Source: an uncultured virus (IMG/VR IMGVR_UViG_3300036770_007242) (taxonomy: Duplodnaviria; Heunggongvirae; Uroviricota; Caudoviricetes). From it: 64,000 nt of DNA. The notes below the pieces were generated by a model. It was not told where the DNA came from, did not search any database, and saw only the letters and a program-made list of their open reading frames with translations. Position numbers and translations under genes: made by a program. The stretch lies in IMG/VR virus record IMGVR_UViG_3300036770_007242; one strand, written 5' to 3'. Each line of letters opens with the position of its first letter. Position 1 is the stretch's first letter. Positions 17,531-52,477 of this stretch are shown here, in pieces.

Positions 17531-19486
17531 ATGTCACGTACACTAACCCTATCACAACTCGCTGAAGGTATTCAACGTACCGCAGCAACTGCTGGCGATG
17601 AACGCATGGTCGGCAAATGGTCACGCACAGGTCTTCTAGAAGGTCTTTCAAATTCTGGCAAGCAAAAGATGGCTCGCCTTCTTGAAAACCAAGCTGTAGA
17701 AGTTCTCAAGGGTGGCTCTTCAATGCTCAACGAAAGCCTTTCACTCTCAACCGGTGGTGCATCACTTGCATCCTCTGGTCAAGTGGCAGGTTTCACCAAC
17801 GTAGCATTCCCAATCGTACGCCGTGTATTCGCTGGCCTCGTAGCCAACGAAATCGTCAGCGTACAACCAATGAGCCTTCCATCAGGTCTACTCTTCTATC
17901 TAGATTACACCTACGGTTCATACGTCGGTGGTGACGCTGCTACAGCCGCTAACCAATTTTCTACATCAGCAGATCCTGGTGCAGCAACATATGCTCGTGG
18001 TCAATCAGTATACACCAACCCATCCGGTTCAGTAATCCGCACAAGCGGTTCACTCGCCGCTGGTGGTCAATACAACCTCATCGGTTCTGGCTACTCAAAG
18101 GTACACGTACAAGGCAAACTCGCAACAGGCGTAGTTGCTCTTGGTGCATGGACCGGTGGAACAACATGGCTCACAGGTTCATCAGTATCAGCTTCAGCAG
18201 GTTTCGTTGGTTACAACGCACGTTTTGTAGATTATGATCCACTTCTTTCAACAGACGTTGAAAACAGTGTGCTCGATTATACCTTCTTAGTTGTGTCAGC
18301 CTCACAACTAACAACAGCAATCAATGGTGCAGACCTTACCTCGGTTGAACAAATTGCAGTAACAGGTCTTGGTTCATCAACTTCAACCTTTACAGCACCT
18401 CCACAAACTTATCAACAAGGCGAAGCAGTTCTCAACTTCCGTCGCTTTACAAAGCGTGGTAACTGGACTGATGCTGGAACTAGCTCAACCTTTACACCAG
18501 ATCCATTCAACGGTTCACACCTTCTCTTTGCAATGGGCCTTGCAAACGCACAAAGCGTTGCAGCCGTATCTCTCGGTAGCGTAACCACACAAGTAACAGC
18601 TTCAGCACCAATCGCTGACGCTCTCTCAGTTAATTCAGATGGTTCAGCCCTTACCATCCCAAGCTTTGAATCAAACTTCGCTGTTGATGCATCACCACGC
18701 ATCCCAGACGTTGACATCAAAATCGATTCAGTAGCTGTTACAGCAACAACCCGTAAGCTACGTGCACGCTGGTCACCAGAAATGGCCCAAGACCTCACAG
18801 CATTCTACTCAATCGACGTTGAAGCAGAACTCACAAATATCCTTTCTGAAATGATCACATTGGATATCGACCGTGAAATTCTCAACGACCTACTTACACA
18901 AGCTCAAGCAGCTAACTACTTCTGGAGCCGTGCCCCAGGTCGCTTCGTCAACAAGTACACTGGTACCGAAGTTGCTCGTACAAACACTGTATACCCAGGT
19001 CCACAATTCACCGGCACAGTCCGTGAATGGTACGAAACACTTATCGAAACCATCACCGACGCAGCCAACGTCATCCACAAGAAGACTCTTCGTGGTTCAG
19101 GTAACTTCATCGTGTGCTCACCAGAAGTGGGTACCATTCTTGAAGCAACTGTTGCTTACCGTGCCAACTACAAGATCGACGGCGATGGCCAAGTTCGTGA
19201 CAACATGAGCATTGGTGCAGAAGCAGTAGGTACAGTAAACGGTCGCTACAGCGTGTTTGTTGACCCATACTTCCCAGTAAACAAGATCCTTGTTGGTCTT
19301 AAGGGTTCAACCTTCCTTGAAAGCGGTTATATCTACGCTCCATACGTACCACTCATCCTCACCCCCGTAATCTACGGTCAAGAGGACTTTACACCACGTA
19401 AGGGCATCATGACACGTTACGGCAAGAAGATGGTACGTGCAGACTTCTACGCCACCGTGACCTGCCTCGATATGTCAATCATTTGA
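17531..19486 (+). CDS. T4 gp23-like major capsid protein
   Basis: KWSRTGLLEGL, LLENQ, FPIVRRVF, VSVQPMSLPSGLLFY, TRKLRARWSPE, YAPYVP, FTPRKGIMTRYG. Confidence 0.97.
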   Translation: MSRTLTLSQLAEGIQRTAATAGDERMVGKWSRTGLLEGLSNSGKQKMARLLENQAVEVLKGGSSMLNESLSLSTGGASLASSGQVAGFTNVAFPIVRRVFAGLVANEIVSVQPMSLPSGLLFYLDYTYGSYVGGDAATAANQFSTSADPGAATYARGQSVYTNPSGSVIRTSGSLAAGGQYNLIGSGYSKVHVQGKLATGVVALGAWTGGTTWLTGSSVSASAGFVGYNARFVDYDPLLSTDVENSVLDYTFLVVSASQLTTAINGADLTSVEQIAVTGLGSSTSTFTAPPQTYQQGEAVLNFRRFTKRGNWTDAGTSSTFTPDPFNGSHLLFAMGLANAQSVAAVSLGSVTTQVTASAPIADALSVNSDGSALTIPSFESNFAVDASPRIPDVDIKIDSVAVTATTRKLRARWSPEMAQDLTAFYSIDVEAELTNILSEMITLDIDREILNDLLTQAQAANYFWSRAPGRFVNKYTGTEVARTNTVYPGPQFTGTVREWYETLIETITDAANVIHKKTLRGSGNFIVCSPEVGTILEATVAYRANYKIDGDGQVRDNMSIGAEAVGTVNGRYSVFVDPYFPVNKILVGLKGSTFLESGYIYAPYVPLILTPVIYGQEDFTPRKGIMTRYGKKMVRADFYATVTCLDMSII

Positions 19487-19514
19487 AAAAGTCCTGAAAA
19501 ACTAGGATAACAAG

Positions 19515-19551
19515 GAAAGAGCGGGTCAAAAGCCCGCTCTTTCTGCATTTT
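19515..19551 (+). terminator. intrinsic terminator after MCP
   Basis: GAAAGAGCGGG-TCAAAAG-CCCGCTCTTTC followed by TGCATTTT. Confidence 0.8.
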
Positions 19552-19624
19552 AGAGATTAGGCAAAACAAACAATCCATATCCAAAACAGTCTTTGTGTGA
19601 TAATATATATCTAAGAGGTGATAT

Positions 19625-20548
19625 ATGGAACTAATCTTTCATGATAAAGGCAATGAAGGTGGTATATACAAGATTCTAAATCTACAAAATGGTAGGATTT
19701 ATATCGGGTCTACATATCGTTTTAAGGATAGAGCAAGGGGACATAAAACTGAACTAGAAGCTGGAAGGCACCTAAATAAGTTTTTGCAAAATGATTATAA
19801 CAAGTGTGGATCTGAGGTTTTCTTATTTGAAGTTATTGAGACTGTGATGGGTGATAGGAAAACCAGAGTCGAGCGAGAGCAGTTTCATATCGATCAATGG
19901 TATGATAATCAAAAGAACTGCTACAACTTAGTTCCATATGCAATGGATAGTCGTGGTGGTTCACGCAATAAGAAACAAATCGATCCATTAACGGATGGAC
20001 GATGTAAACCATTTAATGAGGAGCGTCGTGCAAAACACACAGCCAAGTTAAAAGAAGTGTGGCAAACTCCCGAACTAAAAGAACAATCCAGACAAAATGC
20101 ATATAAGCAATGGCAAGAACAATCTCAGAACAACATAACTGTAACCAACAAAGAGACTGGTGAAAAGGTTGTTATAAGCGGTTCTGTTCGACAGTTTTGT
20201 TTGGATAGAGGATTAAGCTATAAAGCTTTTCATCAGCTAGTAAAAGGCAAACTAAAGAGTTCTGGAGGGTGGTTTGTAGGAGAACAAGAACCAGAATACA
20301 CTAGTAAAAAAGGACAAGTTAGAAAACCTTTAAGTAAAGAGCATAAAGAAAAGATAAGCGGTGGCAAATACGTAGGATTAAAACTTGTTAACCATGAAGG
20401 TTTAGAGATTGTATTAACTTCAAATGTCAAGCAACAATGTAAAGACTTAGGCTTGCCATATTCAACGTTGATCAAGGTTTTAAACGGAAAGTGTAAATCT
20501 GTGTTTGGATATGCTCTAGCAATAGTGACCTCTCTTGATATGGGGTAA
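19625..20548 (+). mobile_element. free-standing GIY-YIG homing endonuclease gene
   Basis: GIYKILN...YIGS, R, E, YN catalytic pattern, NUMOD-like repeats. Last 9 codons resemble the MCP C-terminus. Confidence 0.9.
20519..20548 (+). pseudogene. relic copy of the MCP 3' end
   Basis: AIVTSLDMG versus MCP ATVTCLDMS. GTGACCTCTCTTGATATG versus GTGACCTGCCTCGATATG (15/18). Confidence 0.75.
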
Positions 20549-20576
20549 ATACCCTGTGCAAGTGACTAGATAAAAG

Positions 20577-20610
20577 GAAGGGCAGCTCAAAAGGCTGCCC
20601 TTCTGCTTTT
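20577..20610 (+). terminator. intrinsic terminator homologous to the MCP terminator
   Basis: GAAGGGCAGC-TCAAAAG-GCTGCCCTTC followed by TGCTTTT. Confidence 0.8.
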
Positions 20611-20640
20611 GTACTATTTACATCTTGGAGATATATCAAG

Positions 20641-20988
20641 ATGCTTACACGCCTTTATAAAGCCATTAAGGAAGCCGTTAAAGGTAAACCACTAAAGCTA
20701 CGATCACCTCGTTGGGATGATGTTCGTAAAATCCATTTAAAATCGTTTCCAACGTGTGCAGCTTGTGGTTCAGAAACCAATCTGCAAGTTCACCACATAA
20801 AGCCATTTCATTTATATCCAGAACTTGAACTTGATGAAGAAAATCTTATAACGTTATGTGAAACAAAAACTCACAGGTGTCATTTTAAGATTGGTCATTT
20901 AAACAATTGGAAAAAAGAAAATCCAAATGTTATAGAAGACTCGGTAAAGTATTTAGAACGAGAAAAAGAAAACGCTCTAGCAGTATAA
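20641..20988 (+). CDS. small HNH endonuclease
   Basis: CAACG...VHHIKP...NLITLC....CH. Confidence 0.85.
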   Translation: MLTRLYKAIKEAVKGKPLKLRSPRWDDVRKIHLKSFPTCAACGSETNLQVHHIKPFHLYPELELDEENLITLCETKTHRCHFKIGHLNNWKKENPNVIEDSVKYLEREKENALAV

Positions 20989-21000
20989 CCACTAGAGCGT
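20972..21000. terminator. hairpin between convergent genes
   Basis: ACGCTCTAG...CTAGAGCGT. Confidence 0.5.
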
Positions 21001-21025
21001 GATTGGTTTCTAAAATTGGTTTAAA

Positions 21026-21346
21026 TCAAGCTGATTTTTTCTTTGAAGAAGTAGTTGCTGGAGGTGGTTCTGTTGCAGCTACAGGATCAACCACTGCTGC
21101 TACTTGTTCTGACTTAAGTGATTCAAGAGCAGATGCAAGTTCTTTAACAGAAGCTTGTAGGTTTTGTGCTTGTAGTGCTTGCACTTGTGTTTGCAGAGCA
21201 AGAACAACATCTTCAAGTGCTTTGATTTTTTGCTCTACGGCAGATAGATCAACTGATGACAAGCCTTCTGCTGTTAGTTCTCCAACGATTCTGATTGCCT
21301 GTTTACCACCAGAACCTGCATATGTACCGTCTAATACTGCTTTCAT
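21026..21346 (-). CDS. hypothetical coiled-coil protein
   Basis: 106 aa with AAGGAG RBS. Confidence 0.7.
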   Translation of the reverse strand: MKAVLDGTYAGSGGKQAIRIVGELTAEGLSSVDLSAVEQKIKALEDVVLALQTQVQALQAQNLQASVKELASALESLKSEQVAAVVDPVAATEPPPATTSSKKKSA

Positions 21347-21464
21347 TTTACGTTTCTCCTTTTAGTGCTAACGCTTGATTATATGTATCAAGCAAGAATC
21401 ATTGTTTAAAACATTACCTAGAATGACATTGTTATAACTATTTAGGAAGCAAAGGTATTAAATT

Positions 21465-24218: not shown

Positions 24219-24286
24219 ATGCTTGGATTTTTGAAGGTTGGGTGTATTTATAGGCATGGCGTAATATTGCCGAAGGAGATTTAATC

Positions 24287-24496: not shown

Positions 24497-24520
24497 ATCA
24501 ATCAATAATCAGAGTAAAAG

Positions 24521-24559
24521 CAAAGGGCTTGCATGATGTAAAAATCTGCAAGCCCTTTG
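24521..24559. terminator. bidirectional terminator hairpin
   Basis: CAAAGGGCTTGCA...TGCAAGCCCTTTG between convergent genes. Confidence 0.75.
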
Positions 24560-24565
24560 TGTTTA

Positions 24566-26509: not shown

Positions 26510-26556
26510 TTTGTAAAACGTCCCCTCTCTACTCTATATAACCTCTATTTAACAGC

Positions 26557-27429
26557 ATGACAACAATAGCAACACAACTAGCCACAAAGCTTGTTAATGA
26601 GACTTTAAAAGAACTTTACATTAACGTAGATCATTCTTTTCAAGATATTATTCGTGTGACATATCGTTACAAAGACGAGCCACAAGAAAAAGATGTTAGT
26701 TTGACTTCAGCTATGGAACACGACAGAACCAAACCAGCTGAAGGTGAAAAAATATACGGCGAAGTGTATGCAAAGCTAGCTTCGTCCAGCCCAGACAAAG
26801 CAAAGGGACCATGTAATGATTCATATGTTGTTGAGCTTGCAGTTGTAAATCAACCCGGTGGTGGTTGGGGCAGACTTCTTTACTACATAGCAATGCATTA
26901 TGCTGGTGAAAATGGTTTGATATCAGACAGAGTTCGAAGTTCATCTAATGCCGTTGCAACATGGAACAAACTATGGAATGATTCAGAGATTAAAAAAAAG
27001 CTTCTTGATGATTTTTACGATCCAAAAACTCCAGATGAAAAAGATGATTGCAATCTAGCATCTTCTGGGAAATATTCTACTGAAGATTCCAACAAAGAGA
27101 AAGCAAAGTTTTCAAAGAGTGCTCATAACTGGAATTATTTTTTAGGAGGCCATAGAAAAGAAACCAAAGGCGAATATGAAGAATTAAGTGATCCAAATCC
27201 AGAACGTGCCAAAGAGTATAAAGAACAAAAAGCTAACAAACTGAATTATACATACATTTCTGAGTCTAGAGAAGCAATTAGTATTTTAGCAGATGCTGGA
27301 AGGTTGGCTTATAATGGCAAGTTTTCACCAAAAAAAACAACCACTATCTCTTCTATCAATCGTCCTGCTACTCCAAGACCTATAGAAGAAAACCATGTGT
27401 TTCTTTATGACATCTTGTTTGGAGATTAA
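26557..27429 (+). CDS. hypothetical protein with GNAT-like motif
   Basis: VVELAVV..GGGWGRLLY..SDR..S..A...W. Confidence 0.5.
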   Translation: MTTIATQLATKLVNETLKELYINVDHSFQDIIRVTYRYKDEPQEKDVSLTSAMEHDRTKPAEGEKIYGEVYAKLASSSPDKAKGPCNDSYVVELAVVNQPGGGWGRLLYYIAMHYAGENGLISDRVRSSSNAVATWNKLWNDSEIKKKLLDDFYDPKTPDEKDDCNLASSGKYSTEDSNKEKAKFSKSAHNWNYFLGGHRKETKGEYEELSDPNPERAKEYKEQKANKLNYTYISESREAISILADAGRLAYNGKFSPKKTTTISSINRPATPRPIEENHVFLYDILFGD

Positions 27430-27431: not shown

Positions 27432-27521
27432 ATGGCAAGATTATTCATAGGATTGAGAGAAGTCCAGTTTATTAATGATCTTGCAACTTCCAACCTTTGT
27501 GCGATTTGTTTTTGCCGCTGA
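27432..27521 (+). pseudogene. orphaned 5' stub of the gp14-like gene
   Basis: GGAG RBS, then MARLFIGLREVQFINDLA (identical to the first 18 aa of 28525), then an out-of-context tail and TGA. Confidence 0.92.
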
Positions 27522-28359
27522 TTACATTTCTTAGATGAGTGGGATGTAGGGCATGTAGTTTGCAAAAGGCACTGAGACATACAATTTGCCTATATATTTC
27601 GCCAGTATTAGAAACTAGAGGTCTATCAGATAAGTCGTATATTTTGGCATTGTGGTTATCCATTCCGCTACACTTACCTTTTCTATTTTGTTTCATTTTA
27701 TTAATTGACTCTTGTTTGTGTTTCATACCATAAGTTGGGCTAAGTTCTCCTGCTTTACCAAATAAAGGATGTTTGTCTCCTGCCAATAATCCTTTATGAG
27801 ACTCAGAGAGTTTTTTTCTAGTTTCTTCCGAGATAGTATGTCCAGTTTGAATATTCCGAAGTTTTTCTTTAAGGGCTTCTCCTTTTTCGGTTTGGTAAAA
27901 CCTCTTCTTTGATTCACTGATATTAATCTTGTCTTCTTTAGTGAAACTATAGTTCCTACCACCGGTTATGACGTTGCAAACTTTGCTGCCATATATGAGT
28001 TTAAATTCATTTATATGAAACTGCTCTCGCTCGCACAACAACTTACCAATTTCAGCTTCGTTTGTGGCCACTGACGTATCAACAACTTCTACAATAGAAA
28101 ATCTCAAAAAATCGACGTTACCAGTTTCTAGGTAATGTTTCTGCACCGAACGTTTGAGTTTTATGTTTGTCCCTGATTTTCTTTGTTTTTGTATTGGTTT
28201 CAAAAGATCATACTTGTAGTTTAACCATCTCTCTCTTATTGTTCTTCTTGTCTGTCCAATGTAAATCTTGCCGGAAATCGTATTTTCGATTTTATAGATC
28301 ACATTCTTGGTTCTTGAATGTTGTGCGCCCCCATATCTGTAATCAAACTGCCATTCCAT
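27472..28359 (-). mobile_element. free-standing GIY-YIG homing endonuclease gene
   Basis: VIYKIEN...IYIGQT, REQFHI, NUMOD3 HTISEETRKKLSES, terminal KSHKGW. Confidence 0.9.
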
Positions 28360-28524
28360 ATTTCATACCTTTTTTTGGATACCCCTATCTTGGAGTTAAC
28401 AATAGATAGTGTGATTGTTTTGGTTTCATTTAGATGTTTTTTATTCCTGTTGACTCTAAAGCTTTTGATAAAATCCTTATAAACAAGCATTTGGCAAAAT
28501 CTAAAAACGAACATATATATTTTC

Positions 28525-29244
28525 ATGGCAAGATTATTCATAGGATTGAGAGAAGTACAGTTTATCAATGATTTGGCCAAGGAGTTCATAAAGGATGTTG
28601 CAGGCCAAACAATAAACTACTTTCCTGTATCTTCCATTAAAAGTTCAGTTCATAAGATATACAACGAAGCTGTTCAAAAGATTTTTGAGAATCCTATATC
28701 GGTTCCTGCTCTTGTAGGAATGCCAGAGTATTCAAGCAAAACAACAAACTTCGGTCCAGATATTGAAGCTAAGATTGAAGTGTTGATTCAATACAAAGAT
28801 TTACAAGATAAAGGTATTGTGTTAAGCGAAGGTGATTTCTTTTCTTATGACGACATTCTTTATGAAATTTTAACGGTTGTCAATGCTGGAAAAAACATCT
28901 TTGGTTTAGCTGAATACAACACAGCATGGAAAATCACAGCTCGCAGTGCAAGACTTAATCAGCTTGACTTGCCAAACCTTCCAAATCCAAGACTTGCTCC
29001 AGATGACATTCAAACTGTTTTTGAGCAACAGCGTGGTTTACCTTTAACAGATGATGGTAAGCAAACCGGAGATGTTCGTGAAATGAGAGAACGTCTTGGT
29101 CAAGACATGGCTCCTATTGCTCTTGGTACTGGTCAGCGCAAAGTTGAACCAAACGTAGGAGAAGAAGGTGATTTTATTGAGGGCAAAACACCAAGCTTTA
29201 ACAACGATCCATTGCCTGCCAAAAAAGGAATATATGATGAATGA
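28525..29244 (+). CDS. neck/head-closure protein (T4 gp14-like)
   Basis: YF......H.IYNE, FG......, EGDFF...YEI. Lies between gp13-like and tail terminator genes. Confidence 0.75.
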   Translation: MARLFIGLREVQFINDLAKEFIKDVAGQTINYFPVSSIKSSVHKIYNEAVQKIFENPISVPALVGMPEYSSKTTNFGPDIEAKIEVLIQYKDLQDKGIVLSEGDFFSYDDILYEILTVVNAGKNIFGLAEYNTAWKITARSARLNQLDLPNLPNPRLAPDDIQTVFEQQRGLPLTDDGKQTGDVREMRERLGQDMAPIALGTGQRKVEPNVGEEGDFIEGKTPSFNNDPLPAKKGIYDE

Positions 29245-36875: not shown

Positions 36876-37367
36876 ATGGCACAAACACTATCAGTCACAG
36901 AAATGCTTCCGGCCAAGTTTACACCAATGATGAAACGTCAGTTTATCTTCGCTATCGAAGGTATTGACGCATTCTTGGTAAAAACAGCAGCCCGTCCAGA
37001 AATCACCACCGAAGAAGTTACAATCAACTGGATTAACAGCACACGTTATGTTGCTGGTAAAACAACCTTCGGCACTCTCGCTGTAACCCTACACGATCCA
37101 ATCGCTCCATCCGGCGCACAACAAGTAATGGAATGGGTTCGTCTTTGCTTTGAATCTGTCTCAGGACGTGCTGGTTATCCAGACTTCTATAAGCGTGACA
37201 TTCAACTCAAGATGCTTGATCCAGTTGGTACAGTTATTCAACTCTGGGATATCAAAGGAGCTTTCTGCACAACAGCAGGTTTCGGTGATCTCTCATACGA
37301 TAGCACAGCAGACATGGCCGAAATCTCTCTCACAATTCGCTTTGATAACTGCGTCATGCAATATTAG
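36876..37367 (+). CDS. tail tube protein (gp19-like)
   Basis: RYVAGK..F..L..DPI, YKRDI.L..LDP.G.....W...G, EISLTIRFD. Confidence 0.9.
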   Translation: MAQTLSVTEMLPAKFTPMMKRQFIFAIEGIDAFLVKTAARPEITTEEVTINWINSTRYVAGKTTFGTLAVTLHDPIAPSGAQQVMEWVRLCFESVSGRAGYPDFYKRDIQLKMLDPVGTVIQLWDIKGAFCTTAGFGDLSYDSTADMAEISLTIRFDNCVMQY

Positions 37368-37383
37368 TACGCATTTATCGAAT

Positions 37384-37418
37384 CATGTGGTATACTTATT
37401 AAAGAGGTATACCACATG
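37384..37418 (+). promoter_or_regulatory. hairpin occluding the HNH start codon, with late-promoter motif inside
   Basis: CATGTGGTATAC / GTATACCACATG perfect 12-bp inverted repeat. TACTTA at 37393-37398. Confidence 0.75.
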
Positions 37419-38273
37419 TTTTCTTGCCCAATTTGCCCGCAACATTACTCTGAACTAATCTCTCTTTCGGTACACTACCGAAAACAACACAAAAAAACTT
37501 CTCAAGATTTATACGTTTCTTTATTCTGCAATAACGTCATTCCACTTTGTAAGTGTGGATGTGGAACGCAGGTAAAATTTCTGGATATTACGCAGGGTTT
37601 TCGTGAATACAAACTCGGACATGCTTCTCGTGTAGCGAATAATTTTCAAACCGAAAAATCTAGATCGAACTCTAAAAGTGCTCGACGGAAAATGCTAGAA
37701 GATGGTAGTTGGAAACCATTTGTGACAAAAGAAACAGGAGAGCACTGGAGTAAAGGTTTAACTAAAGAAACGGATGAGCGTATTCGAAAGATGGCTGACA
37801 CTGTTTCTCTACCTGAAGAGAGTGCTCGTCGGTCAGAGAGAATGAGAAGGAACAGACTCAATGGAGTTGTACGAACATTGCACAAAGAGGAACATTCACA
37901 GTGGAAAGGTGGAGTAACAAGTCTTCTAAGTTATTGTCATTCGAACAAAAAACTTTTTACTGAATGGAAATATCCCAAACTATTAAAATCAAACTTTTCA
38001 TGCGAAAAATGTGGAGCTTCTAGAGATGCCAACCCCAGACCATTATTAGAAGTACATCACGATAAACAGCGAATGTCTGAGATCGTAAGGTATATTGCAC
38101 AAACATTCGGCTGGAAGGATCATTATGCAACAACTCCAACCGATTCAGAAAGTATAGAGATGAAAGAAAAAATCTCTGATGCTGTTGCTGTATATCATAT
38201 CGAAAACAATATTAGCGGAATCGTTCTTTGTCAGGAGTGTCATAAAGCCATACACAACAAACATAATCTTTAA
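37416..38273 (+). mobile_element. free-standing HNH homing endonuclease gene with Zn-finger N-terminus
   Basis: CPIC..H...H, CKCGCG, WKGG, CEKCG..LEVHH..CQECH...H. Confidence 0.85.
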
Positions 38274-38285
38274 GTGAAAGTATAC

Positions 38286-38308
38286 TTCGACAACTGCGTA
38301 CACAATAC
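38286..38308 (+). pseudogene. relic copy of the tail tube 3' end
   Basis: TTC GAC AAC TGC GTA ca CAA TAC versus TTT GAT AAC TGC GTC ATG CAA TAT. Confidence 0.75.
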
Positions 38309-38340
38309 ACAGTTATCAGTTTACAAAGTTAGAAACACTG

Positions 38341-38373
38341 GAAATAAAGCCAATTTTAAATTGGCTTTATTTC
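38341..38373. terminator. 16-bp perfect inverted repeat, likely the original tail tube terminator
   Basis: GAAATAAAGCCAATTT-T-AAATTGGCTTTATTTC. Confidence 0.65.
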
Positions 38374-38402
38374 TTTATATTGTCATGGTTTTTTGCTATT
38401 CT
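38374..38402 (+). promoter_or_regulatory. putative early (sigma70-like) promoter
   Basis: TTTATA, 17 nt ending TGC, TATTCT. Confidence 0.55.
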
Positions 38403-38427
38403 TAATAATGAGGAAAGAGACAAAACA

Positions 38428-39285
38428 ATGGCGAATCTCAAGGTTTTTTATTCACCCAATCAAACTGTTCGTGACAACAAGAGTTATTCTCCGAGTGCTG
38501 GTAAGCCTGAGCATGTTGTAAATCAGTTTATGCGTACAGGTCGTGTTGATGTGCGTAGTGGTTGGATGCCTCTTACTCAAGATGATATTTGTCTTGCACA
38601 TGAATCTAGTTTTGTTGATGACATTCTAAATCTTCGTCAACCAAACGGATTTGGTAACAAGTTGGCTTCTGTAGCTTCTAGCTTGCCTTATACAGCCGGT
38701 AGTTTCTTTCGTGCGGCTGAGTATGCCTTGGAAAATAAGACGGCTGCAATGAGCCCTACAAGCGGTTTCCATCATAGTGGATATAACAGTTGTCATGGTT
38801 TTTGTACGTTTAATGGACTTATGATTGCTGCAATGCTGCTGTGGCAAAATCATGGCGTTAACAAGATTGGGATTATCGATTTCGACGCTCATTATGGTGA
38901 TGGTACCGAAGATATTATCAAGAGTATTGATGGTGCACGGGATGTTATTGAGCATCTAACGTTTGGTGCTTTTGCTAGGATTGGAATGAATTTTGATCGT
39001 TGGCTTGACCGTCTTGAAGCTGATTTGATTGAAAAGTTTCATGGTTGTGATATTTTGTTTTACCAAGCTGGAGCTGATCCTCATATTGATGATCCTCTTG
39101 GTGGATACCTTACCACCGAGCAGATGAAGCGTCGTGATGATATTGTTTTTAAGGTTGCGAAGAGGCTTAACAAGCCTATTGTGTGGAATCTTGCTGGTGG
39201 TTATCAACATCCGTTGCAAAATGTGTTGGATATTCACAACAACACCTTGCAAGCTTGTTTGGAGCATTATATCGATGCAACGTAA
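38428..39285 (+). CDS. Zn-dependent histone deacetylase-family amidohydrolase
   Basis: GFHH, GFCTFN, DFDAHYGDG, YQAGADPH.DDPLG, GGY. Confidence 0.92.
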   Translation: MANLKVFYSPNQTVRDNKSYSPSAGKPEHVVNQFMRTGRVDVRSGWMPLTQDDICLAHESSFVDDILNLRQPNGFGNKLASVASSLPYTAGSFFRAAEYALENKTAAMSPTSGFHHSGYNSCHGFCTFNGLMIAAMLLWQNHGVNKIGIIDFDAHYGDGTEDIIKSIDGARDVIEHLTFGAFARIGMNFDRWLDRLEADLIEKFHGCDILFYQAGADPHIDDPLGGYLTTEQMKRRDDIVFKVAKRLNKPIVWNLAGGYQHPLQNVLDIHNNTLQACLEHYIDAT

Positions 39286-44279: not shown

Positions 44280-44285
44280 GTTTTT

Positions 44286-44798: not shown

Positions 44799-45062
44799 TT
44801 AGATTATTTCTAAGTTTTCTGGTTGTGCTGCTTCGATGATAAAGCGTTGGTGTAGTGGTTCAAAAGTTAGCACTAGAGGAACATGCCAGGCTGGATGTGT
44901 TTCTCTACGCTTGGATTCGTTAATTGCATTTTGAAATGCAATTTGCATAAAGTGTTGAATGCGTGGAGTTAGTGGTTCTCCCAAAAACGTTTCATTTAAT
45001 ACGTTGTTATAGTAATCAATGATTTTATACCAATAGTTTCTTTGAACCTGAATTTTGCTCAT
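44799..45062 (-). CDS. hypothetical protein
   Basis: 87 aa coupled to purA. Confidence 0.65.
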   Translation of the reverse strand: MSKIQVQRNYWYKIIDYYNNVLNETFLGEPLTPRIQHFMQIAFQNAINESKRRETHPAWHVPLVLTFEPLHQRFIIEAAQPENLEII

Positions 45063-46183
45063 AACACAATCATATCCTCTCTTTCTGGAGATGTTGAGAT
45101 ATAAGTAACTGGAGCCATGGCAACTGCTGCAATATGTTGTATATAATTCAATGCATCCTGTGGCAACAATGTTTTATCACGCAAACCTTTTGTTGGACGA
45201 TTCCAGCCATTCCAATCACAATAAACAATCTCTTCACGGCTATTTTGAAAACCTCTATAACCTACAGGAATCATCTTAAATTCATCTAGTACATCTAGCT
45301 TGGTAATCACAACTTCATCAACTCCATTAAGTTCGCATGCTCGACGTAGATCATTATAATCTAGCCAACCACAACGACGGTTTCTTCCTGTTGTTGTGCC
45401 ATATTCTCCACCTACTTCACGAAGCTTATCACCAATCTCATTCTTCTGTTCTGTTGGAAATGGTCCCTCTCCAACCCGTGTTGTATATGCCTTAACAACA
45501 CCAATAACCTTACGTAGAGATTTATGGTTTAATCCTGTTCCTGTAAGTGCTCCACCAATAGTACAGTTGGAACTTGTGACATATGGATACGTGCCATGAT
45601 CAATATCAAGAAGAGTGCCTTGTGCACCCTCTAGAAGAATATTAGCGCCGCTTTTAACAGCCATTTGCAGTAAGCTAGTAGTGTCAGATACAAAAGGCTT
45701 AATAACGTCTAGAGTGCCTTCTGGATATAGAGAATCCAACTCACCTTTTGCAAGGTTTTCCATACGCAACCCTGTGCGATGCATTTTAGCTGCATATGTG
45801 GGACCAATACCTCGTCCAGTTGTTCCTACCTTTTTACCTGTTGCTTGATCTTCTGTGCGAGCCGTAGGAAGAATAACGTGAGCAGCATGAGAAATAAACA
45901 AACGACCAACAAGACTCGACGCACCTACTTGATTGATTTCTTTAGCAAGTTGTTCTGGATCAATCACACAACCATTCCCAATAACGTTGTTGACATGTGG
46001 ATGGAGAACTCCAGAAGGAAGAGCATGAACAGCAATACGGTGTCCATTTACCACAAGCGTATGTCCTGCGTTGTTACCTCCATGAAACCTTACAACATAT
46101 TCGTAGTTTTTGGCAAGATAGTCAACAACCTTGCCTTTCCCTTCGTCCCCGTAGGATAGCCCTAACACTACATCAGCTGGCAT
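45059..46183 (-). CDS. purA: adenylosuccinate synthetase
   Basis: GDEGKGK, GGNNAGHT, GTTGRGIGP, EGAQG..LD..HGTYPYVTSS, TRVG.GPFPTE, GTTTGR.RRCGW, TKLDVL. AGGAGA RBS before ATG 46183. Confidence 0.95.
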   Translation of the reverse strand: MPADVVLGLSYGDEGKGKVVDYLAKNYEYVVRFHGGNNAGHTLVVNGHRIAVHALPSGVLHPHVNNVIGNGCVIDPEQLAKEINQVGASSLVGRLFISHAAHVILPTARTEDQATGKKVGTTGRGIGPTYAAKMHRTGLRMENLAKGELDSLYPEGTLDVIKPFVSDTTSLLQMAVKSGANILLEGAQGTLLDIDHGTYPYVTSSNCTIGGALTGTGLNHKSLRKVIGVVKAYTTRVGEGPFPTEQKNEIGDKLREVGGEYGTTTGRNRRCGWLDYNDLRRACELNGVDEVVITKLDVLDEFKMIPVGYRGFQNSREEIVYCDWNGWNRPTKGLRDKTLLPQDALNYIQHIAAVAMAPVTYISTSPEREDMIVL

Positions 46184-46288
46184 AATATATTCTCCTTGTA
46201 TAAACACGTTAACACAAGATTAGGTAAAGATAAAAGGATTATATGTGGTGTGGAAGATAACCAAGAGAAGGAAGCGATACTTAATGTT

Positions 46289-47110: not shown

Positions 47111-47334
47111 CTAAGTTATACGAAATACTATTTGAAACAGGTCCAAGTGCTCAAAGTGCTATTCCCACTCTAGGAGATGATCCAAGAAGAGTTTCCAGAA
47201 CAGGTGTTGCTGCACAAGACAATGGTTTTCTGGATATTGTTGACACGATGGATTTAGATGTTGATAGTCCAGAAGATGATTGGGATTCAACGTTTCCACA
47301 AGAAGATAGAATGGAAAGCAAGATAACGACGTAA
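47107..47334 (+). CDS. small acidic protein with MTKLYEILFE leader
   Basis: 75 aa, coupled. Confidence 0.65.
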   Translation: MTKLYEILFETGPSAQSAIPTLGDDPRRVSRTGVAAQDNGFLDIVDTMDLDVDSPEDDWDSTFPQEDRMESKITT

Positions 47335-47366
47335 GTTCTCTACTTATGAGCAAAGGTATATGACAT

Positions 47367-48212
47367 ATGACCACAAAAATATTAGACAAAGAACGTTTGC
47401 AAAAAGTTATTCAAGAAGCTGTTGGTAATGTTTTGGGCAACAGTGGAGTATTGGAGAAGCCTGCGGTGAAACAATTTGTTGCTGCTGGTAAAAAGTTATT
47501 AAAAGAAGCTGTTATCATTATGCCAAGATCTTTTGTTATGAAAGGTGATGTTCAGTCACCTACCACAAAAGAAAATCATGAAAAGCTTTACAAGAGTTAC
47601 GTTGATAGCTTCAACAAAATCTCTAGCAAGCTTGATACAGTTCCAAAAACAGATGCAGATAATAACAATGATAGTGAATATCGCAGACTAAAGCAAGACG
47701 AAGTTCATAACATGAACGGCGTTAAGCTGCATGAGTTATACTTCACCAACTCTGGGGATGTGAACTCTGAGATTCGTGCAGACAGCACACCATTCATGAG
47801 ATTAAGCCGTGATTGGGGAACCTTTGATCAATGGCAGCTAGACTTTCGTGCATGTGGCATGTCAGCTAGAGAAGGTTGGGCAATCTGTTATTTTGATCCA
47901 TTTAAGCAACAATATTTCAATTGCTTTATAGAAGGTCACACAATCAATCTTCCTCTTATGGCTATTCCTGTGTTGGTAGTTGACACATGGCATCACGCAT
48001 GGTTTTATGATTATCCTGGCGAGAAGATGGAATATCTTAACAAGTCAATGCGTGAGATTAACTGGAATGTGGTTGAAATGAGAATGCTTGCAGCAGAAAT
48101 GGCTAAGTTGCATCAACTTTATGCGATTCAGCCAGTTATTTCAAACGAGAAAGAAAAAACTGTTGCTCTTCCAGAAATAATGCCACCTGTAGAAGTTCTA
48201 GGAGCCCGCTGA
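47367..48212 (+). CDS. Fe/Mn superoxide dismutase-like protein with N-terminal extension
   Basis: H..LY..YV, LHELYF, GWA, P.LVVDTWHHAW..DY, INW. Confidence 0.8.
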   Translation: MTTKILDKERLQKVIQEAVGNVLGNSGVLEKPAVKQFVAAGKKLLKEAVIIMPRSFVMKGDVQSPTTKENHEKLYKSYVDSFNKISSKLDTVPKTDADNNNDSEYRRLKQDEVHNMNGVKLHELYFTNSGDVNSEIRADSTPFMRLSRDWGTFDQWQLDFRACGMSAREGWAICYFDPFKQQYFNCFIEGHTINLPLMAIPVLVVDTWHHAWFYDYPGEKMEYLNKSMREINWNVVEMRMLAAEMAKLHQLYAIQPVISNEKEKTVALPEIMPPVEVLGAR

Positions 48213-48940: not shown

Positions 48941-48943
48941 AGA

Positions 48944-49234
48944 TTGATTAAAGAGTTTGAAGAACGAACAAGAATAGGTCTTTGGTTAGCTTTACCGAAG
49001 GCATCTTTGGTTGCGTGTCGTAGAATGTTATTTGAGAACGGTGTTTCTTTGCAAGAGCTATTTTCACAAATTATTGTGATGATGGAAAACAAAGACCCAA
49101 GAATCAAAAGTATATTAGAATCGGCAAAAACTGAAAAGTTCGCAAACAAAAAAAGACAGTTGGTGTTTACAAATCCTAAAGCAATTTATGCAGCATTAGG
49201 AGAAAATGACCCGCTAAAAGATAAAAAGGAATAA
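48944..49234 (+). CDS. hypothetical protein
   Basis: TTG start after GGAGG. Confidence 0.6.
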   Translation: MIKEFEERTRIGLWLALPKASLVACRRMLFENGVSLQELFSQIIVMMENKDPRIKSILESAKTEKFANKKRQLVFTNPKAIYAALGENDPLKDKKE

Positions 49235-49238
49235 CGTT

Positions 49239-49586
49239 ATGGCAAACAGTAGAAAGAAAAAGAGTGAGCCACCTACCGAGGAAGCCTCACCAAAAATTAT
49301 CTCAGGTGAAAACATTGATATCAACGAACTGTTTGCTAGATTGAAAGAGTTTGAAAACAAAGCGTTGCTCGACCGTTTAAAGTCAATTGAGCGTAGCATC
49401 TCATCAATCCAAAAAGGTATGCTTTTAGATCGTGCAATGCTAAAAGATGTTAAACAAATTGTTTCTTATCTAAGTCTTGCACATGAAGAACTGTTAAATC
49501 AAATTGGATTTGGTGAAGCTACTGAAGAAGAAATAGAACAACATGTTGTTCCAGAAAAAGAAAAAGGAAGCAAGAAATGGAACTAA
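49239..49586 (+). CDS. hypothetical coiled-coil protein
   Basis: 115 aa. Confidence 0.65.
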   Translation: MANSRKKKSEPPTEEASPKIISGENIDINELFARLKEFENKALLDRLKSIERSISSIQKGMLLDRAMLKDVKQIVSYLSLAHEELLNQIGFGEATEEEIEQHVVPEKEKGSKKWN

Positions 49587-50032
49587 CATTTCTTAAAGTC
49601 AAAACGTTTCTAGAAAAGGCTTTGTTGTTTGTTAAGCTTTACTGGAAACTGATTTTGGTTTCCATTGGGTTGATTTATTTGATTTTGTTTGTTAAGCGAA
49701 AAAACGATTTGGTTGTTGAGTTGCTGGCTCAACGTGAGCGTATGCGCAAAGAACATCAAGACAATATCGATAGATTAAACCAACAAATACAAACTGAAGT
49801 TGCGGTGCGTCGCAAGATTGAATCAGACTTTCAAAATTTAATTGAACGTATTAATCGTGAACACAACGAAGAAATTAAAAGAATTGCTTCGGTTCGAGAA
49901 CAAGAAATTAAAGCTTTGATTGCAAAGCATCATAACGATCCTGTTATAATGGCACAAACAATTAATGATTTGTTTGGTATACCTGTGATGCCCGTACCAA
50001 CAGAAAGACAGCCGTGGGAACCTCAACAATAA
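49577..50032 (+). CDS. membrane-anchored coiled-coil protein (i-spanin-like)
   Basis: N-terminal TM LILVSIGLIYLILFV followed by helical coiled coil. Confidence 0.5.
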   Translation: MELTFLKVKTFLEKALLFVKLYWKLILVSIGLIYLILFVKRKNDLVVELLAQRERMRKEHQDNIDRLNQQIQTEVAVRRKIESDFQNLIERINREHNEEIKRIASVREQEIKALIAKHHNDPVIMAQTINDLFGIPVMPVPTERQPWEPQQ

Positions 50033-50625
50033 AAACAAAACTAATTGCTAGCATTTTAATAACTTCTATTGCATGTAAGAGCACACAAACTGTAAGAGTT
50101 AATTCTCAGCCAACTACAGCGGAATTAACAGCGGTTAACATGTCTCCATATAATGTTCAACGTTCTCCAGAACCAACACCTATTTCTATACGAAATATTA
50201 TTGGAACTGACACAGCTAGAAACTTGGGTGCACAATCCTTGTTCATGTACACACTCAACACACCTAATTTAGTTAGACCTTATGTGTTGGGACCATGGAA
50301 CGGTTTGTGTCTTAACGAACCTTCTTTAAATCACATTGTTGCATCAGTTAATCAAGCTGTACGTAACACACAAAACGATGAGTTTTTAAGATTACAAACT
50401 CTTAGTGCTCATGCTCAAAGAGACATTGCAATGTTGCAAGCTGATTTTCGTGCAATTAGCAATGGTTATGTAGCACAAATAAACGAGCGTGACATAACCA
50501 TAAGAGATGCACAAATAACCATTAATGGATTACAACGCAACAATCTTTGGTCTAATATTGGGTTTGGTGTTGGAGGTGTGCTTTTAGGTCTTGGTGTTTC
50601 TGGGATTATCCTACTTAATAGATAG
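50014..50625 (+). CDS. putative lipoprotein with C-terminal TM (spanin-like)
   Basis: K-rich N-terminus, ASILITSIA-C lipobox-like site, C-terminal IGFGVGGVLLGLGVSGIILL. Confidence 0.5.
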   Translation: MGTSTIKTKLIASILITSIACKSTQTVRVNSQPTTAELTAVNMSPYNVQRSPEPTPISIRNIIGTDTARNLGAQSLFMYTLNTPNLVRPYVLGPWNGLCLNEPSLNHIVASVNQAVRNTQNDEFLRLQTLSAHAQRDIAMLQADFRAISNGYVAQINERDITIRDAQITINGLQRNNLWSNIGFGVGGVLLGLGVSGIILLNR

Positions 50626-50639
50626 GAGGATTTAATCTT

Positions 50640-50894
50640 ATGGCACTACTTCTCAAAAACAGCGAAGGAAAAACTAGTGTAAGTTATACAATGGTATACA
50701 CAGCCTTTGCTGTATCTCTTCTTTGGTATCTTGTTTCTATCATCAACGTTCCTCACATCAGAGCTTTTGATGTTACAACAGCTTCTGGTTTCTTATCTCC
50801 ACTTCTCGCTCTTTATTTCGGTCGTAAATGGAGTGATTCAAGAAGCAGCAGCAATCTAACTACTTCAGCCACTCCAACAACACCCGCAGAATAA
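50640..50894 (+). CDS. small two-TM protein (holin-like)
   Basis: 84 aa, two hydrophobic helices, AGGAGG RBS. Confidence 0.5.
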   Translation: MALLLKNSEGKTSVSYTMVYTAFAVSLLWYLVSIINVPHIRAFDVTTASGFLSPLLALYFGRKWSDSRSSSNLTTSATPTTPAE

Positions 50895-50979
50895 AAACAC
50901 TATAAAACAAGGCATTTTGTAAAAACAAGCCTAATTATAGTAGGATGCAATATCTAACCTGCATCTGGGAGGATTCGTC

Positions 50980-51273
50980 ATGCTAACAGGTAAAGAATAT
51001 CTTGATGGCATTCAAAGTGCTATTCAAGTTGAAATCGATACCGAGTTACAACGGCTGCAATATTTTCTAAAAGCAAATGCTAGAATGCACAACACACGAT
51101 TTCCGTTTGTGTTTCCAGTAAGAAGTTGCAGCTTTGAAGTTATAGAAGCACTAGCTAATCATTTGATAGAAGCTGGGTGGAGTGTGGAGAAGGGCAAAGA
51201 ATATTTGCAAATAATGCCTGCTCCTGTGTCAATGTTTAAGTCTTCTTCCAGTTCATCACTTCCTCGTAAGTAA
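50980..51273 (+). CDS. hypothetical protein
   Basis: 97 aa with GGAGG RBS. Confidence 0.65.
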   Translation: MLTGKEYLDGIQSAIQVEIDTELQRLQYFLKANARMHNTRFPFVFPVRSCSFEVIEALANHLIEAGWSVEKGKEYLQIMPAPVSMFKSSSSSSLPRK

Positions 51274-51309
51274 TTCATATTAGCCTTTTACTTATAGTTG
51301 GAGGTTTTT

Positions 51310-51378
51310 ATGAACAAGTTTACGAATGATACCAAAGGACTTTCAACAGTTTATTCCTCTAGCGTCCAACCTTTGTAA
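51310..51378 (+). pseudogene. orphaned 5' stub of Flp pilin gene
   Basis: TACTTA + GGAGG + MNKFTNDTKGLSTV, then an out-of-context tail and TAA. Confidence 0.85.
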
Positions 51379-52247
51379 GTTTTTATTATTCCAGACAAAA
51401 GTCTATAGAAACTACTTCTTTCTAAATTGTTTTCTATCATAAATCTTACAAGATTTATTCCTTCTACTTCTATTCGTTTGTGGTCGGAAACGAAAACAAA
51501 TACTTTGTCACCATAACGCTTTCTTGCTTTTGTTTCGCTTATTTTTTGTTTCTGGCCATCAGACATAGTTTTACCAAAGTTTGGATTTTTTTCACCTAAC
51601 CTGGAGAAACTCATCTTTTCTTTCGTAGTAGCGTTTGCTTTTTTCCCAATCCTAGATTGACGTAATTTTTCCTTAGTTTCTTCCGATATATTTTTTTTGG
51701 CTTCAACAAGTTTTTGTATATGTTCTGGTGTTTTAGGTTTCCTTAGTTTTTCTTTTGCTTCTTCTGACATTGGCACACCAATATGGGCGGCACGTATCTT
51801 TTCTTTTGTTTCTTCTGTTCTGGGCACACCTACTCTTGCAGCAATTGAGGCTTTTGTTGCCTTGGACATATCTTTGCCTTTACGCTGTTTGCTCCATAAA
51901 GCTTTTGTTTCATCAGATGGTTTAAAACCAAGGGTATTACCAGCCTTCTCGCAAATATTATAGCATTGTTTTTTGCCATCAAAAAACTTCTCTAGATAAT
52001 ATTGCTCTCTAACCAATAACTGTTTTTTATCAACCATCTCAATAATTTCATAAGTTAACGGTTCCTGCCCATATTCTTTTTTGCAAGAGTTATAATCATT
52101 TTGCAAATATTGATTTGGATGACGATTATGGAACAAATCAGATTGATGAGCTGCCCATCGCTTCATAAAGTCAATGGTACTTCCTATGTATATACGACCA
52201 TTGAACTTATTTGTTATCTTATAGATGCCAGATTTTTTCATGTTCAT
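51351..52247 (-). mobile_element. free-standing GIY-YIG homing endonuclease gene
   Basis: SGIYKITN...IYIGS, REQYY, YN, several NUMOD3 EETKEK repeats, terminal YKGW. Confidence 0.92.
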
Positions 52248-52312
52248 GTGTTATATATAGTTGTTCTTTGCAGTTGTTGCATAGAAATACACTAAAAAAA
52301 AGGAGTTCTAAG

Positions 52313-52477
52313 ATGAAAAAACTTGCAAAAGACACTAAAGGACTTTCAACAATTGAATATGTGATTATTCTCATTTTGATTGCTGTTGTTGGCATTACGG
52401 CATGGAGAACGTTTGGAAACACTGTTGTAACCAAAATTAACTCTGGTAACAGCCAAGTAAGTGGTTTGGGTCCATGA
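52313..52477 (+). CDS. flp: Flp/Tad (type IVb/c) prepilin
   Basis: AGGAG RBS, 54 aa: MKKLAKDTKG^LSTIEYVIILILIAVVGITAWRTFG. G-1, E+5, Y+6 and hydrophobic helix. Confidence 0.88.
   Translation: MKKLAKDTKGLSTIEYVIILILIAVVGITAWRTFGNTVVTKINSGNSQVSGLGP

Follow-up and report, generated by a model that had tools for sequence, protein, structure and literature searches.

Partial duplicates of gene termini at four endonuclease genes of a large T4-like phage

The window analysed here is the whole stretch of 64,000 nt of the uncultured virus IMGVR_UViG_3300036770_007242 (Caudoviricetes), and the piece under study spans positions 17,531-52,477. The phage is large and T4-like: profile searches of the window recovered a T4-type virion module with genes for a portal, a prohead protease, a capsid protein of the gp23 family and a gp19-like tube protein, and sheath-domain matches were found in two long open reading frames (ORFs). 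Within the piece, each of four large endonuclease genes lies between the working terminus of a gene and a dead partial copy of that terminus (the relic), and all four pairs were found where the initial annotation had placed them. The duplicated termini are the 3’ ends of the major capsid protein (MCP) gene and of the tail tube gene, and the 5’ ends of a gene called gp14-like and of a gene for a Flp/Fap-like small protein (the Flp gene).

Three of the four endonuclease genes were assigned to the GIY-YIG family by profiles. GIY1 (19625-20548, plus strand) contains Pfam GIY-YIG and NUMOD-like domains and matches PHROG 314 with E = 2.5e-26. GIY2 (27472-28359, minus strand) matches PHROG 314 (E = 2.4e-24) and Pfam NUMOD3, and its GIY-YIG match (E = 4.9e-4) is under the Pfam cut-off. 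GIY4 (51351-52247, minus strand) matches Pfam GIY-YIG (E = 1.5e-8), NUMOD3 (E = 1.1e-12) and PHROG 314 (E = 3e-39). The three genes are distant paralogues, 26-45% identical chiefly across the catalytic part. The fourth endonuclease ORF, which follows the tail tube gene (37416-38273, plus strand), has invariant CxxC..HH..N..CxxCH columns across eight homologues. The Pfam HNH profile was matched in five of these eight homologues with a best E value of 0.17, and hhalign gave a probability of 7%. For the predicted fold (pLDDT 61), Foldseek retrieved no PDB match at E <= 0.001, and a profile search of the PDB yielded weak zinc-finger matches at the N-terminus only. The HNH label is a motif-level reading, an assignment that comes without a significant profile or fold match. 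Thus, of the two families that had been proposed to be involved, GIY-YIG is supported by profiles in three genes, whereas HNH stands at the motif level only.

An Rfam search of the whole window at the gathering score gave no family at all, hence no intron family, and Pfam found no intein domain in the four ORFs. In addition, all four genes are present or absent at the same locus among relatives, with exact boundaries. The respective comparisons were made with the related loci L198/L199 for GIY1, L083-L099 for GIY2, and L180 and L184-186 for GIY4, and with L100, L101, L108 and all four sequencing runs for the tube endonuclease gene (L-numbers denote related loci that were compared with the window, and X4-X7 denote runs). 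We read the four genes, the tube endonuclease gene by its motif only, as free-standing homing endonuclease genes at the extreme ends of conserved genes.

The significance of the pairs was quantified by nucleotide local alignment of the working terminus against the flank, in comparison with 300 dinucleotide shuffles of the flank. The gp14-like 5’ pair (28525-28577 and 27432-27484) is identical at 49 of 53 positions, and its score of 45 was reached by none of the 300 shuffles. The same was true for the Flp 5’ pair (52313-52354 and 51310-51351), with 34 of 42 identical positions and a score of 24. The score of 13 for the MCP 3’ pair (19446-19474 and 20515-20542) was reached by 6 of 300 shuffles and is marginal, and the score of 12 for the tube 3’ pair (37340-37363 and 38285-38307) was reached by 35 of 300 shuffles and is not significant alone. 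Judged by these alignments, the two 5’ pairs are far above chance inside the window, whereas the two 3’ pairs are weak there and are confirmed via relatives.

The duplicated segments in the window are short, about 30-55 nt. Each relic either follows a stop codon or has an inverted endonuclease gene between itself and the gene body, and endonuclease ORFs run into relics. It had been stated that each relic touches or overlaps the 3’ end of its endonuclease gene; the relic indeed overlaps this end at the MCP and gp14-like sites and abuts it at the Flp site, but at the tube site it lies 10 nt past it. In all four cases in the window, the endonuclease gene has the working copy on its 5’ side, in agreement with the proposed polarity. 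The AT-alternating octamer WATATATA was found four times in the window, and three of these sites (19602, 28514 and 52252) belong to cassette 5’ regions; across the window it is not enriched, its count being equalled by 12 of 100 shuffles. Sigma-70-like promoter matches in the window were fewer than in shuffles (38 versus 48 and 3 versus 5.9) and are therefore uninformative on cassette promoters, and the T4 late-promoter octamer was not enriched (3 matches versus 2.6 expected).

A search of an annotated phage collection did not reveal a close relative; the DNA matches were short only, and the top MCP protein match was 45% identical. Many relatives were found among uncultivated viral contigs, including one contig of 260 kb, and near-identical DNA (71-83% of sampled words) was present in runs of seven further studies, which were labelled freshwater, lagoon, aquaculture or marine, or carried no label. 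At the four sites, the window was compared with four runs, each from a different study. Assembled contigs were aligned, not raw reads, the evidence was restricted to contigs that bridge a joint, and uncovered parts and allele depths were not used to argue for absence.

The Flp gene (52313-52477, plus strand) matches Pfam PF04964 with E = 3.9e-5, under the cut-off, and is conserved in L180, L181 and L184-186. Its working 5’ terminus (52313-52354, plus strand) is preceded by a divergent spacer (52248-52312) that contains the ribosome-binding site of the working copy and TATATATA at 52252-52259. The relic Flp 5’ end (51310-51351, plus strand), with the native ribosome-binding region upstream, is collinear with empty alleles. 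In these empty alleles, i.e. L180 and L184 (also L185 and L186), the upstream ORF leads straight into the Flp gene and GIY4 is absent at the site. Window positions 50535-51351 align to positions 3488-4278 of L180, and the first 42 nt of the L180 Flp gene match the window twice, at the relic and at the working terminus, around 961 nt that are missing from L180. The 60 nt upstream of the relic are identical to L180 at 41 positions and to L184 at 40 positions, whereas the 60 nt upstream of the working copy are unrelated to both alleles (18 of 60 in each case). By eye, the latter region is homologous only to that of the occupied allele L181 (27 of 60, ungapped), which has a 75% identical inverted endonuclease gene at the same site, its own relic, and the same layout of relic, endonuclease gene and working copy. 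Codon 14 of Flp encodes Ile in the working copies and Val in relics and empty alleles, and one G/A change at the junction separates the working copies from the relics and the close empty alleles L180 and L184. In the coding part, 31 of 39 positions of the working copy and 32 of 39 of the relic are identical to L180. The prediction that empty alleles carry a single 5’ end that resembles the relic was thus borne out at this site. Because the relic and its upstream region match the empty alleles, and the working end and the spacer match only L181, a cassette model, in which the endonuclease gene brings its own replacement terminus, fits the Flp gene. From these alignments, the mobile unit at this site is read as the endonuclease gene, the spacer and the new 5’ end.

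The gp14-like gene (28525-29244, plus strand) is conserved in 19 loci. It had no Pfam, PHROG or NCBIfam match, such that its name is without profile support. The working 5’ terminus (28525-28577, plus strand) is separated from the start of GIY2 by a spacer (28360-28524) that is carried with the cassette and contains an AT-alternating box at 28514-28521. The relic 5’ end (27432-27484, plus strand) begins 2 nt past the stop codon of ORF 26557-27429, and the final codons of the inverted GIY2 gene are on the strand opposite the relic. GIY2 is absent between homologous flanks in L083-L099, and relatives without it have a single gp14-like 5’ end. The region between ORF 25253 and the gp14-like gene varies among relatives, which contain nothing, an optional ORF of 290 amino acids, or a different co-oriented GIY gene at this place.

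Locus L081 is 99% identical to the window across the gp14-like region. Its relic is identical to the L093-type allele at 39 of 43 positions, versus 34 of 43 positions for its own working copy; hence, the relic and the working end stem from different allele lineages, and the cassette model also held at the gp14-like gene. The relic of the window differs from that of L081 (L081 2908-2960) at five clustered positions, 27443-27458, and at all five it is identical to its own working copy, which is 1.1 kb away. This pattern indicates a short ectopic gene-conversion tract, by which the working copy would have partly overwritten the relic. L092-094 are devoid of GIY2, yet 38 nt of the 5’ leader (28371-28408) are kept at 92-97% identity, which looks like the footprint of an endonuclease gene loss. 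Two further observations concern this region. In L083-L085 and L092-L094, the gp14-like gene opens with ATT TCT instead of ATG GCA, and by eye no canonical in-frame start was present in about 60 nt upstream, so this opening may represent either non-canonical initiation or extensive recoding of the 5’ end. Contigs of all four runs have about 410 extra letters at 26532-26543, between ORF 25253 and the optional ORF 26557; this insertion is another indel in the hot spot upstream of the gp14-like gene.

The tail tube gene (36876-37367, plus strand) is T4 gp19-like, with a match to Pfam PF06841 (E = 8e-6) under the family cut-off, and is conserved in 80 loci. Its working 3’ terminus covers 37340-37367 (plus strand). 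The cassette (37365-38274, plus strand) is made up of a TAG of its own that serves as the tube stop codon, a hairpin and the endonuclease ORF. The relic (38283-38310, plus strand) is out of frame with the tube ORF and is followed by a native-type terminator at 38340-38374. Locus L100, which has no endonuclease gene and whose tube protein is 100% identical to that of the window, is alignable with the window as far as 37365 and again from 38275. The insert opens with its own TAG stop and closes one base before the old TGA, and the relic comes next in both the window and L100. A comparable relic directly after the tube stop, again without an endonuclease gene, was found in L108 and L160. L101 has neither a relic nor an endonuclease gene, and in loci of the L121 type a relic-like stretch lies between the tube stop and a 58% identical endonuclease gene. 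Contigs of all four runs, from four studies, bridge 37364 to 38275 and keep the relic, and the depth of the endonuclease gene in these runs was 0 to 1.35. Among related loci, 6 of 74 rows had a tube relic score of at least 27, and all other rows scored at most 23. By eye, the relic shares a run of 16 nt and a further run of 6 nt with the tube 3’ end of L104.

The cassette model was thus not supported in its stated form at the tube gene, where L100, L108, L160 and all four runs hold the working end, the stop and the relic without an endonuclease gene. Because the relic is kept in endonuclease-free alleles, it is older than, or at least independent of, the present gene. Beside these results, we observed that a 14-bp hairpin (37384-37418) covers the ribosome-binding site of the tube endonuclease gene and ends on its start codon, which resembles the translational control of T4-type endonuclease genes, and that the relic of L100 is the 5’ arm of a 9-bp hairpin. 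In L135, L137 and L138 (4753-5337) and in L136 (3265-3848), the start of an ORF of about 180 amino acids downstream of the tube gene is repeated at the start of the next ORF with scores of 28-36; these are probably tandem paralogues that are not linked to endonucleases.

The MCP gene (17531-19486, plus strand) belongs to the T4 gp23 family (Pfam PF07068, E = 1.5e-78). Its working 3’ module (19451-19565, plus strand) consists of the last 11 codons, the stop codon, a small hairpin at 19515-19543 and terminator 1. The relic unit (20519-20625, plus strand) consists of a dead copy of the last nine codons and the stop codon, a hairpin remnant and terminator 2. The duplication continues through hairpin and terminator, with 75 of 102 aligned columns identical between the two units. 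The last ten codons and the stop codon of GIY1 read through the relic, and the resulting tail, AIVTSLDMG*, is missing in the six homologues with a readable C-terminus (eight were examined), which end 3-16 residues past a shared (K/T)S-x-x-G-(W/H) motif. A TCTA microhomology of 4 nt is present at the junction of GIY1 and the relic. GIY1 occupies what we take to be the same niche as T4 segD, which lies just downstream of the capsid gene 23. A small HNH gene (20641-20988, plus strand; Pfam HNH E = 1.9e-7, PHROG 144) follows the relic unit; this fifth endonuclease gene was not part of the initially reported set.

Closer MCP relatives were found by searching with the downstream gene and in metagenome contigs. 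Naive alleles, which have neither an endonuclease gene nor a relic, exist for both terminator types. In the A-type alleles (L195-197), the gene end, hairpin and terminator resemble the working module of the window (92 of 114 columns identical to L195), and in the B-type allele (L282) the terminator resembles terminator 2, which follows the relic. The relic unit is identical to L282 at 75 of 104 columns, mainly in the terminator, and to L195 at 74 of 104. In L198/L199, the relic unit comes directly after the MCP stop, and terminator 2 and then the small HNH gene come next; this stretch is 98% identical to the window over 122 nt. Relative to these loci, GIY1 is an exact indel of 19487-20518. Hence, the cassette model was not supported in its stated form at the MCP gene, as the working end, stop and relic already stand in tandem in alleles without GIY1, and GIY1 is not demonstrably the bringer of the working terminus. 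The tube and MCP relics are so read, from the allele comparisons, as older scars that are separable from the present endonuclease genes.

The MCP relic unit was found in three contexts, i.e. in the window, in L198/L199 and in L272, where it is about 90% identical across 49 nt (20518-20566) and lies directly after the MCP stop and upstream of a GIY homologue. The order of L272, with the relic before the GIY gene, was also seen in contigs of two runs. L192/L270 contain GIY and small HNH genes and no relic. The small HNH gene is present in L192, L198/L199 and L270, inverted in L201 and L272, and absent from L195-197 and L282. In GIY1-bearing contigs of three of the four runs, a deletion of 37 nt (20527-20563) between GTGAC repeats has removed most of the relic and results in a different GIY1 stop. 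A different MCP-end relic lies between the MCP stop and a GIY gene in L004/L003 and L274, and in L028 a full second MCP end follows an ORF of 203 amino acids that belongs to no known family. Of 100 non-redundant MCP loci, 21 had an endonuclease gene within 1.8 kb downstream, and 5 of these, versus 1 of the other 79, had a relic score of at least 26, although some of the five positives are near-duplicates and not independent. The hairpin that follows the MCP relic was also sought in metagenome contigs by an exact-pattern scan, without a match.

Other observations at the MCP gene concern copies of different kinds. Upstream of GIY1, an inverted stretch (19570-19602, minus strand) has a translation that resembles the MCP C-terminus, with a peptide score of 27 compared to chance best scores of 13-22 in most other loci. 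A similar stretch precedes the GIY gene of L192, and the stretch may be a candidate target-like operator. In L007 (6012-6590) and L010 (6255-6749 and 6920-7507), the full MCP gene is followed downstream by ORF-sized fragments homologous to its C-terminal third (28-39% identity); these may be large old relics or vertex-protein paralogues.

The association of terminus repeats with endonuclease genes was not restricted to the window. In a flank-to-flank repeat test with all ORFs of 150-400 amino acids in all fetched loci, in which near-identical loci were included and samples were thus not independent, repeats with scores of at least 20 surrounded 9 of 41 endonuclease-like ORFs versus 7 of 531 other ORFs, and with scores of at least 16 the respective numbers were 15 of 41 and 26 of 531. 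In L084/L085, a perfect repeat (22 of 22 nt) around a GIY gene spans the stop codon of the homologue of ORF 25253. In the L185 homologue of ORF 53036, the last roughly 35 residues of the working copy are foreign, and they are followed by an inverted GIY gene and then by the native 3’ part, which is 96% identical to the empty allele L186, with an overlap of 197 nt. The working end is here on the 3’ side of the endonuclease gene, and the polarity is reversed. Furthermore, in L004, L274, L272 and the L121 type, the relic is located between the gene end and the endonuclease gene, i.e. on its 5’ side. The polarity rule thus holds in the window and fails among relatives. A flank repeat at the 3’ end of the L121-type endonuclease gene (score 18) looked on inspection like a chance match.

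The alignment of related genomes gave two answers, a single terminus resembling the relic in the empty alleles at the Flp and gp14-like genes, and tandem termini at the MCP and tube genes. A replacement terminus that keeps the host gene whole was found at the Flp and gp14-like genes and in L185, but not as a single unit at the MCP and tube genes. The displaced end is nearer to relatives than the working end in the upstream region of Flp, in the relic of L081 and in L185; for the Flp coding part the two ends are nearly equal, for MCP only the terminator distinguishes them, and the tube relic matches the L104-type end by eye.

The sequences themselves show the duplications, alleles with and without the endonuclease genes, exact indel boundaries, differing allele affinities of relics and working copies, gene conversion between the copies and decay of a relic. 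The partial duplicates would be scars of endonuclease-driven double-strand-break repair between co-infecting relatives. One side of the break would be resolved by homology within the conserved gene, and the other side, which faces the variable inter-gene region, would be joined without homology or by microhomology; since homology is present in the conserved gene and absent in the variable neighbouring region, the second junction would be non-homologous. The product would depend on which side is without homology. One outcome, a donor terminus with a recipient relic, would be a terminus swap as at the Flp and gp14-like starts and, in L185, at the 3’ terminus of the 53036 homologue: the mobile unit would comprise the endonuclease gene, a spacer with expression signals and the replacement terminus, and the recipient’s own terminus would be displaced as an untranslated relic. 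The other outcome, a recipient terminus with a dead donor flank, would be nested or flank-carrying insertions as at the MCP and tube ends, where the relic would be an older remnant of another allele’s 3’ module and the endonuclease gene would have been inserted exactly between the stop and the relic. Later insertions and losses would nest on earlier ones. The TCTA microhomology and the endonuclease ORFs that end in relics fit this reading. Taken together, repeated break repair with one homologous and one non-homologous junction is the best reading of all observed states, and we favour it with somewhat better than even confidence. From the sequences, we infer cleavage at the junctions, the repair pathway and the immunity of the working copies.

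Several points weigh against this reading. The mechanism is deduced from end products. The Flp coding copies are about equally distant from the empty alleles, so that the upstream region and one codon carry the argument at this site, and the GIY2 cassette was seen only in one close clade (L081, L082 and runs X4-X7). At the MCP and tube genes, the endonuclease-free tandem alleles could stem from precise loss and need not be older than the insertion. Among all fetched loci, no naive single-terminus allele that carries the relic’s own MCP coding end was found, but only tandem or occupied alleles. Between the window and L272, the MCP 3’ region is about 91% identical across 460 nt, and the relic unit shows a similar degree of conservation; this would not be expected for a functionless scar unless it was recently exchanged. 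Lastly, the left boundary of the MCP relic that is shared by the window and L198/L199 is not explained by random deletion or joining.

The initial annotation had proposed a uniform cassette at all four sites, in which a recoded terminus, a regulatory part and an endonuclease gene would form an evolved strategy, immune through the recoding and with the relic always being the original end. This proposal fits the Flp and gp14-like genes and L185, the polarity in the window is real, the same layout surrounds the ORF of 203 amino acids in L028, and the MCP locus can be viewed as a composite of A-type and B-type 3’ modules around GIY1, for both of which naive alleles exist. As a rule for all sites we consider it unlikely, because both termini are present in endonuclease-free alleles at the MCP gene (L198/L199) and the tube gene (L100, L108, L160 and all four runs), the bounds of the tube cassette run from stop codon to stop codon and exclude the terminus, and the working MCP module equals a naive allele class. 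In addition, the polarity of L185 is reversed, L004, L274, L272 and the L121 type have their relics on the 5’ side of the endonuclease gene, and some flank repeats, such as the 22-nt repeat of L084/L085, are perfect and not recoded. In a more general form, portable terminus cassettes would have evolved in T4-like phages, linking a replacement end, a start or stop codon and expression signals to an endonuclease gene and keeping the native end as a homology arm. Such cassettes would provide an intron-like discrimination of self and target without splicing, would work at either gene end, and would be a general route into conserved genes; we regard this as a tentative possibility, somewhat more probable than the uniform version. 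That relics are kept for use by the endonuclease gene, as a homology arm or as a target-like operator or decoy that the endonuclease would bind, is less probable still. An operator or decoy would resemble the autorepression of I-TevI. The MCP relic unit adjoins an endonuclease gene in all three contexts and has the high conservation versus L272 described above, relics lie 50-100 nt upstream of the endonuclease start in L272, L004, L274 and the L121 type, the inverted MCP-end-like stretch recurs in L192, and the tube relic of L100 is part of a hairpin. However, the MCP relic is mostly deleted beside GIY1 in three of the four runs and absent in L192/L270, which shows that it is dispensable, and relics persist without a nearby endonuclease gene in L100, L108 and L160. 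The MCP relic may be a mere scar, or a homology arm or operator, being well conserved between the window and L272 and deleted in other alleles.

The tandem ends at the 3’ sites could also be resistance alleles, in which a duplication of the last 9-11 codons breaks a long recognition site while the protein is kept, the endonuclease genes having been acquired later by ordinary recombination. Endonuclease-free tandems indeed occur in several lineages with the relic about 0-8 nt from the stop codon (L100, L108, L160 and L198/L199), and the tandem is the main tube allele in all four other studies. A local duplication is nevertheless at odds with the MCP relic, which differs from the adjacent end in hairpin and terminator type, and with the tube relic, which by eye resembles the L104-type end more closely than the working end next to it. 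A repeat period of 35 nt at the tube site also counts against this idea, and the 5’ sites would remain unexplained; we therefore give it a small probability. Finally, we consider chance similarity or an assembly artefact to be extremely improbable. The shuffle results for the tube and MCP pairs would, alone, leave room for chance, but the two 5’ pairs were not matched by any shuffle, the relics are orthologous across loci, and the same architectures were found in independent assemblies (L001, L081, L082, L102, L103, L181 and contigs of X4-X7). Repeated break repair with one non-homologous junction thus remains our preferred reading.

The closest counterparts that we found are mobile ORFs of fungal mitochondria with C-terminal duplications, described for Allomyces atp6, Rhizopus atp9, Mortierella cox2 and Glomus atp6, atp9, cox2 and nad3 (PMC3630166; older cases as cited there). 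According to the accessible text of that paper, a GIY-YIG or LAGLIDADG ORF is inserted into the 3’ part of a conserved gene along with a foreign terminus, by which the gene stays intact, and the native terminus is left downstream and is nearer to the sequence of relatives than the inserted one. To this extent, the precedent that had been named for the phage sites is documented, and it is documented for 3’ ends. L185 and the Flp and gp14-like sites resemble these elements as far as they are described there. In contrast to them, the present cases are from a phage and not from an organelle, and two are located at gene starts, with an inverted endonuclease gene and a newly supplied ribosome-binding site and start codon. 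The phage segments are also short, the replacement terminus ends in its own stop codon instead of being fused in frame with the endonuclease ORF, and the endonuclease gene can be separated from the duplication at the two 3’ sites.

Intronless homing is described for seg (GIY-YIG) and mob (HNH) genes of T4-type phages, which lie between conserved genes, are present or absent, and spread by break repair with co-conversion of the flanks (PMC2988022, PMC13565253; accessible text). The endonuclease genes of the window are likewise free-standing between conserved genes and present or absent among relatives; in the seg and mob cases described in these texts, however, self and non-self are distinguished by substitutions in a nearby conserved gene and not by a displaced gene end. 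Split genes have also been described, namely mobE in nrdA of Aeh1, mobA in gene 60 of T4, and a seg gene in gene 43 of phage 25 (PMC2988022), and the accessible text of that review of T4 mobile DNA does not contain the word stem “duplicat”. Both arrangements, as far as that text describes the split genes, have a free-standing endonuclease gene inside a coding region that is single in relatives, without splicing; two polypeptides are expressed in the split genes, whereas here the gene stays whole by means of a second terminus and the displaced piece is dead. In the accessible part of a study on endonuclease genes at recombination boundaries, duplication is mentioned only within endonuclease genes (PMC10448857). 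Homing endonucleases hosted by inteins or introns also occupy conserved coding targets, but here the host gene is kept intact by duplication and not by splicing. A full-text literature search, which did not cover papers in subscription journals, found no description of such a layout in phages. To our knowledge, there is no description of the version at gene starts, in which the endonuclease gene is inverted and the cassette supplies the start codon and ribosome-binding site. By analogy, the elements may be regarded as a phage counterpart of the fungal mitochondrial mobile ORFs, extended to gene starts.

Several other features of the window lie outside the four sites. The portal gene (T4 gp20 family, 9086-12241) contains an intein with an HNH_3 endonuclease domain, which also had not been included in the initially reported set; splicing and non-splicing endonuclease elements are thus both hosted in virion genes of one phage. 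Profile matches identified auxiliary genes for a Cpn60 chaperonin (4038-5801), a histone deacetylase-family protein (38380-39285), an adenylosuccinate synthetase (45059-46207) and an Fe/Mn superoxide dismutase (47367-48212). NCBIfam profiles gave no matches for eight ORFs.

In annotation, mis-calls can arise from short dead gene ends beside endonuclease genes and from endonuclease ORFs whose last codons are taken from such ends. For the biology of these elements, intronless homing in phages is thought to need substitutions near the endonuclease gene for the distinction between self and target (PMC13565253, accessible text). A linked replacement terminus would be a second solution to this distinction, and would let an endonuclease gene occupy conserved coding sequence with neither an intron nor an intein. 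Among the related loci there is a natural series of naive, occupied, tandem-scar, decayed-relic and reversed-polarity states, through which the life cycle of such elements and the part that non-homologous joining plays in phage mosaicism become open to direct tests.

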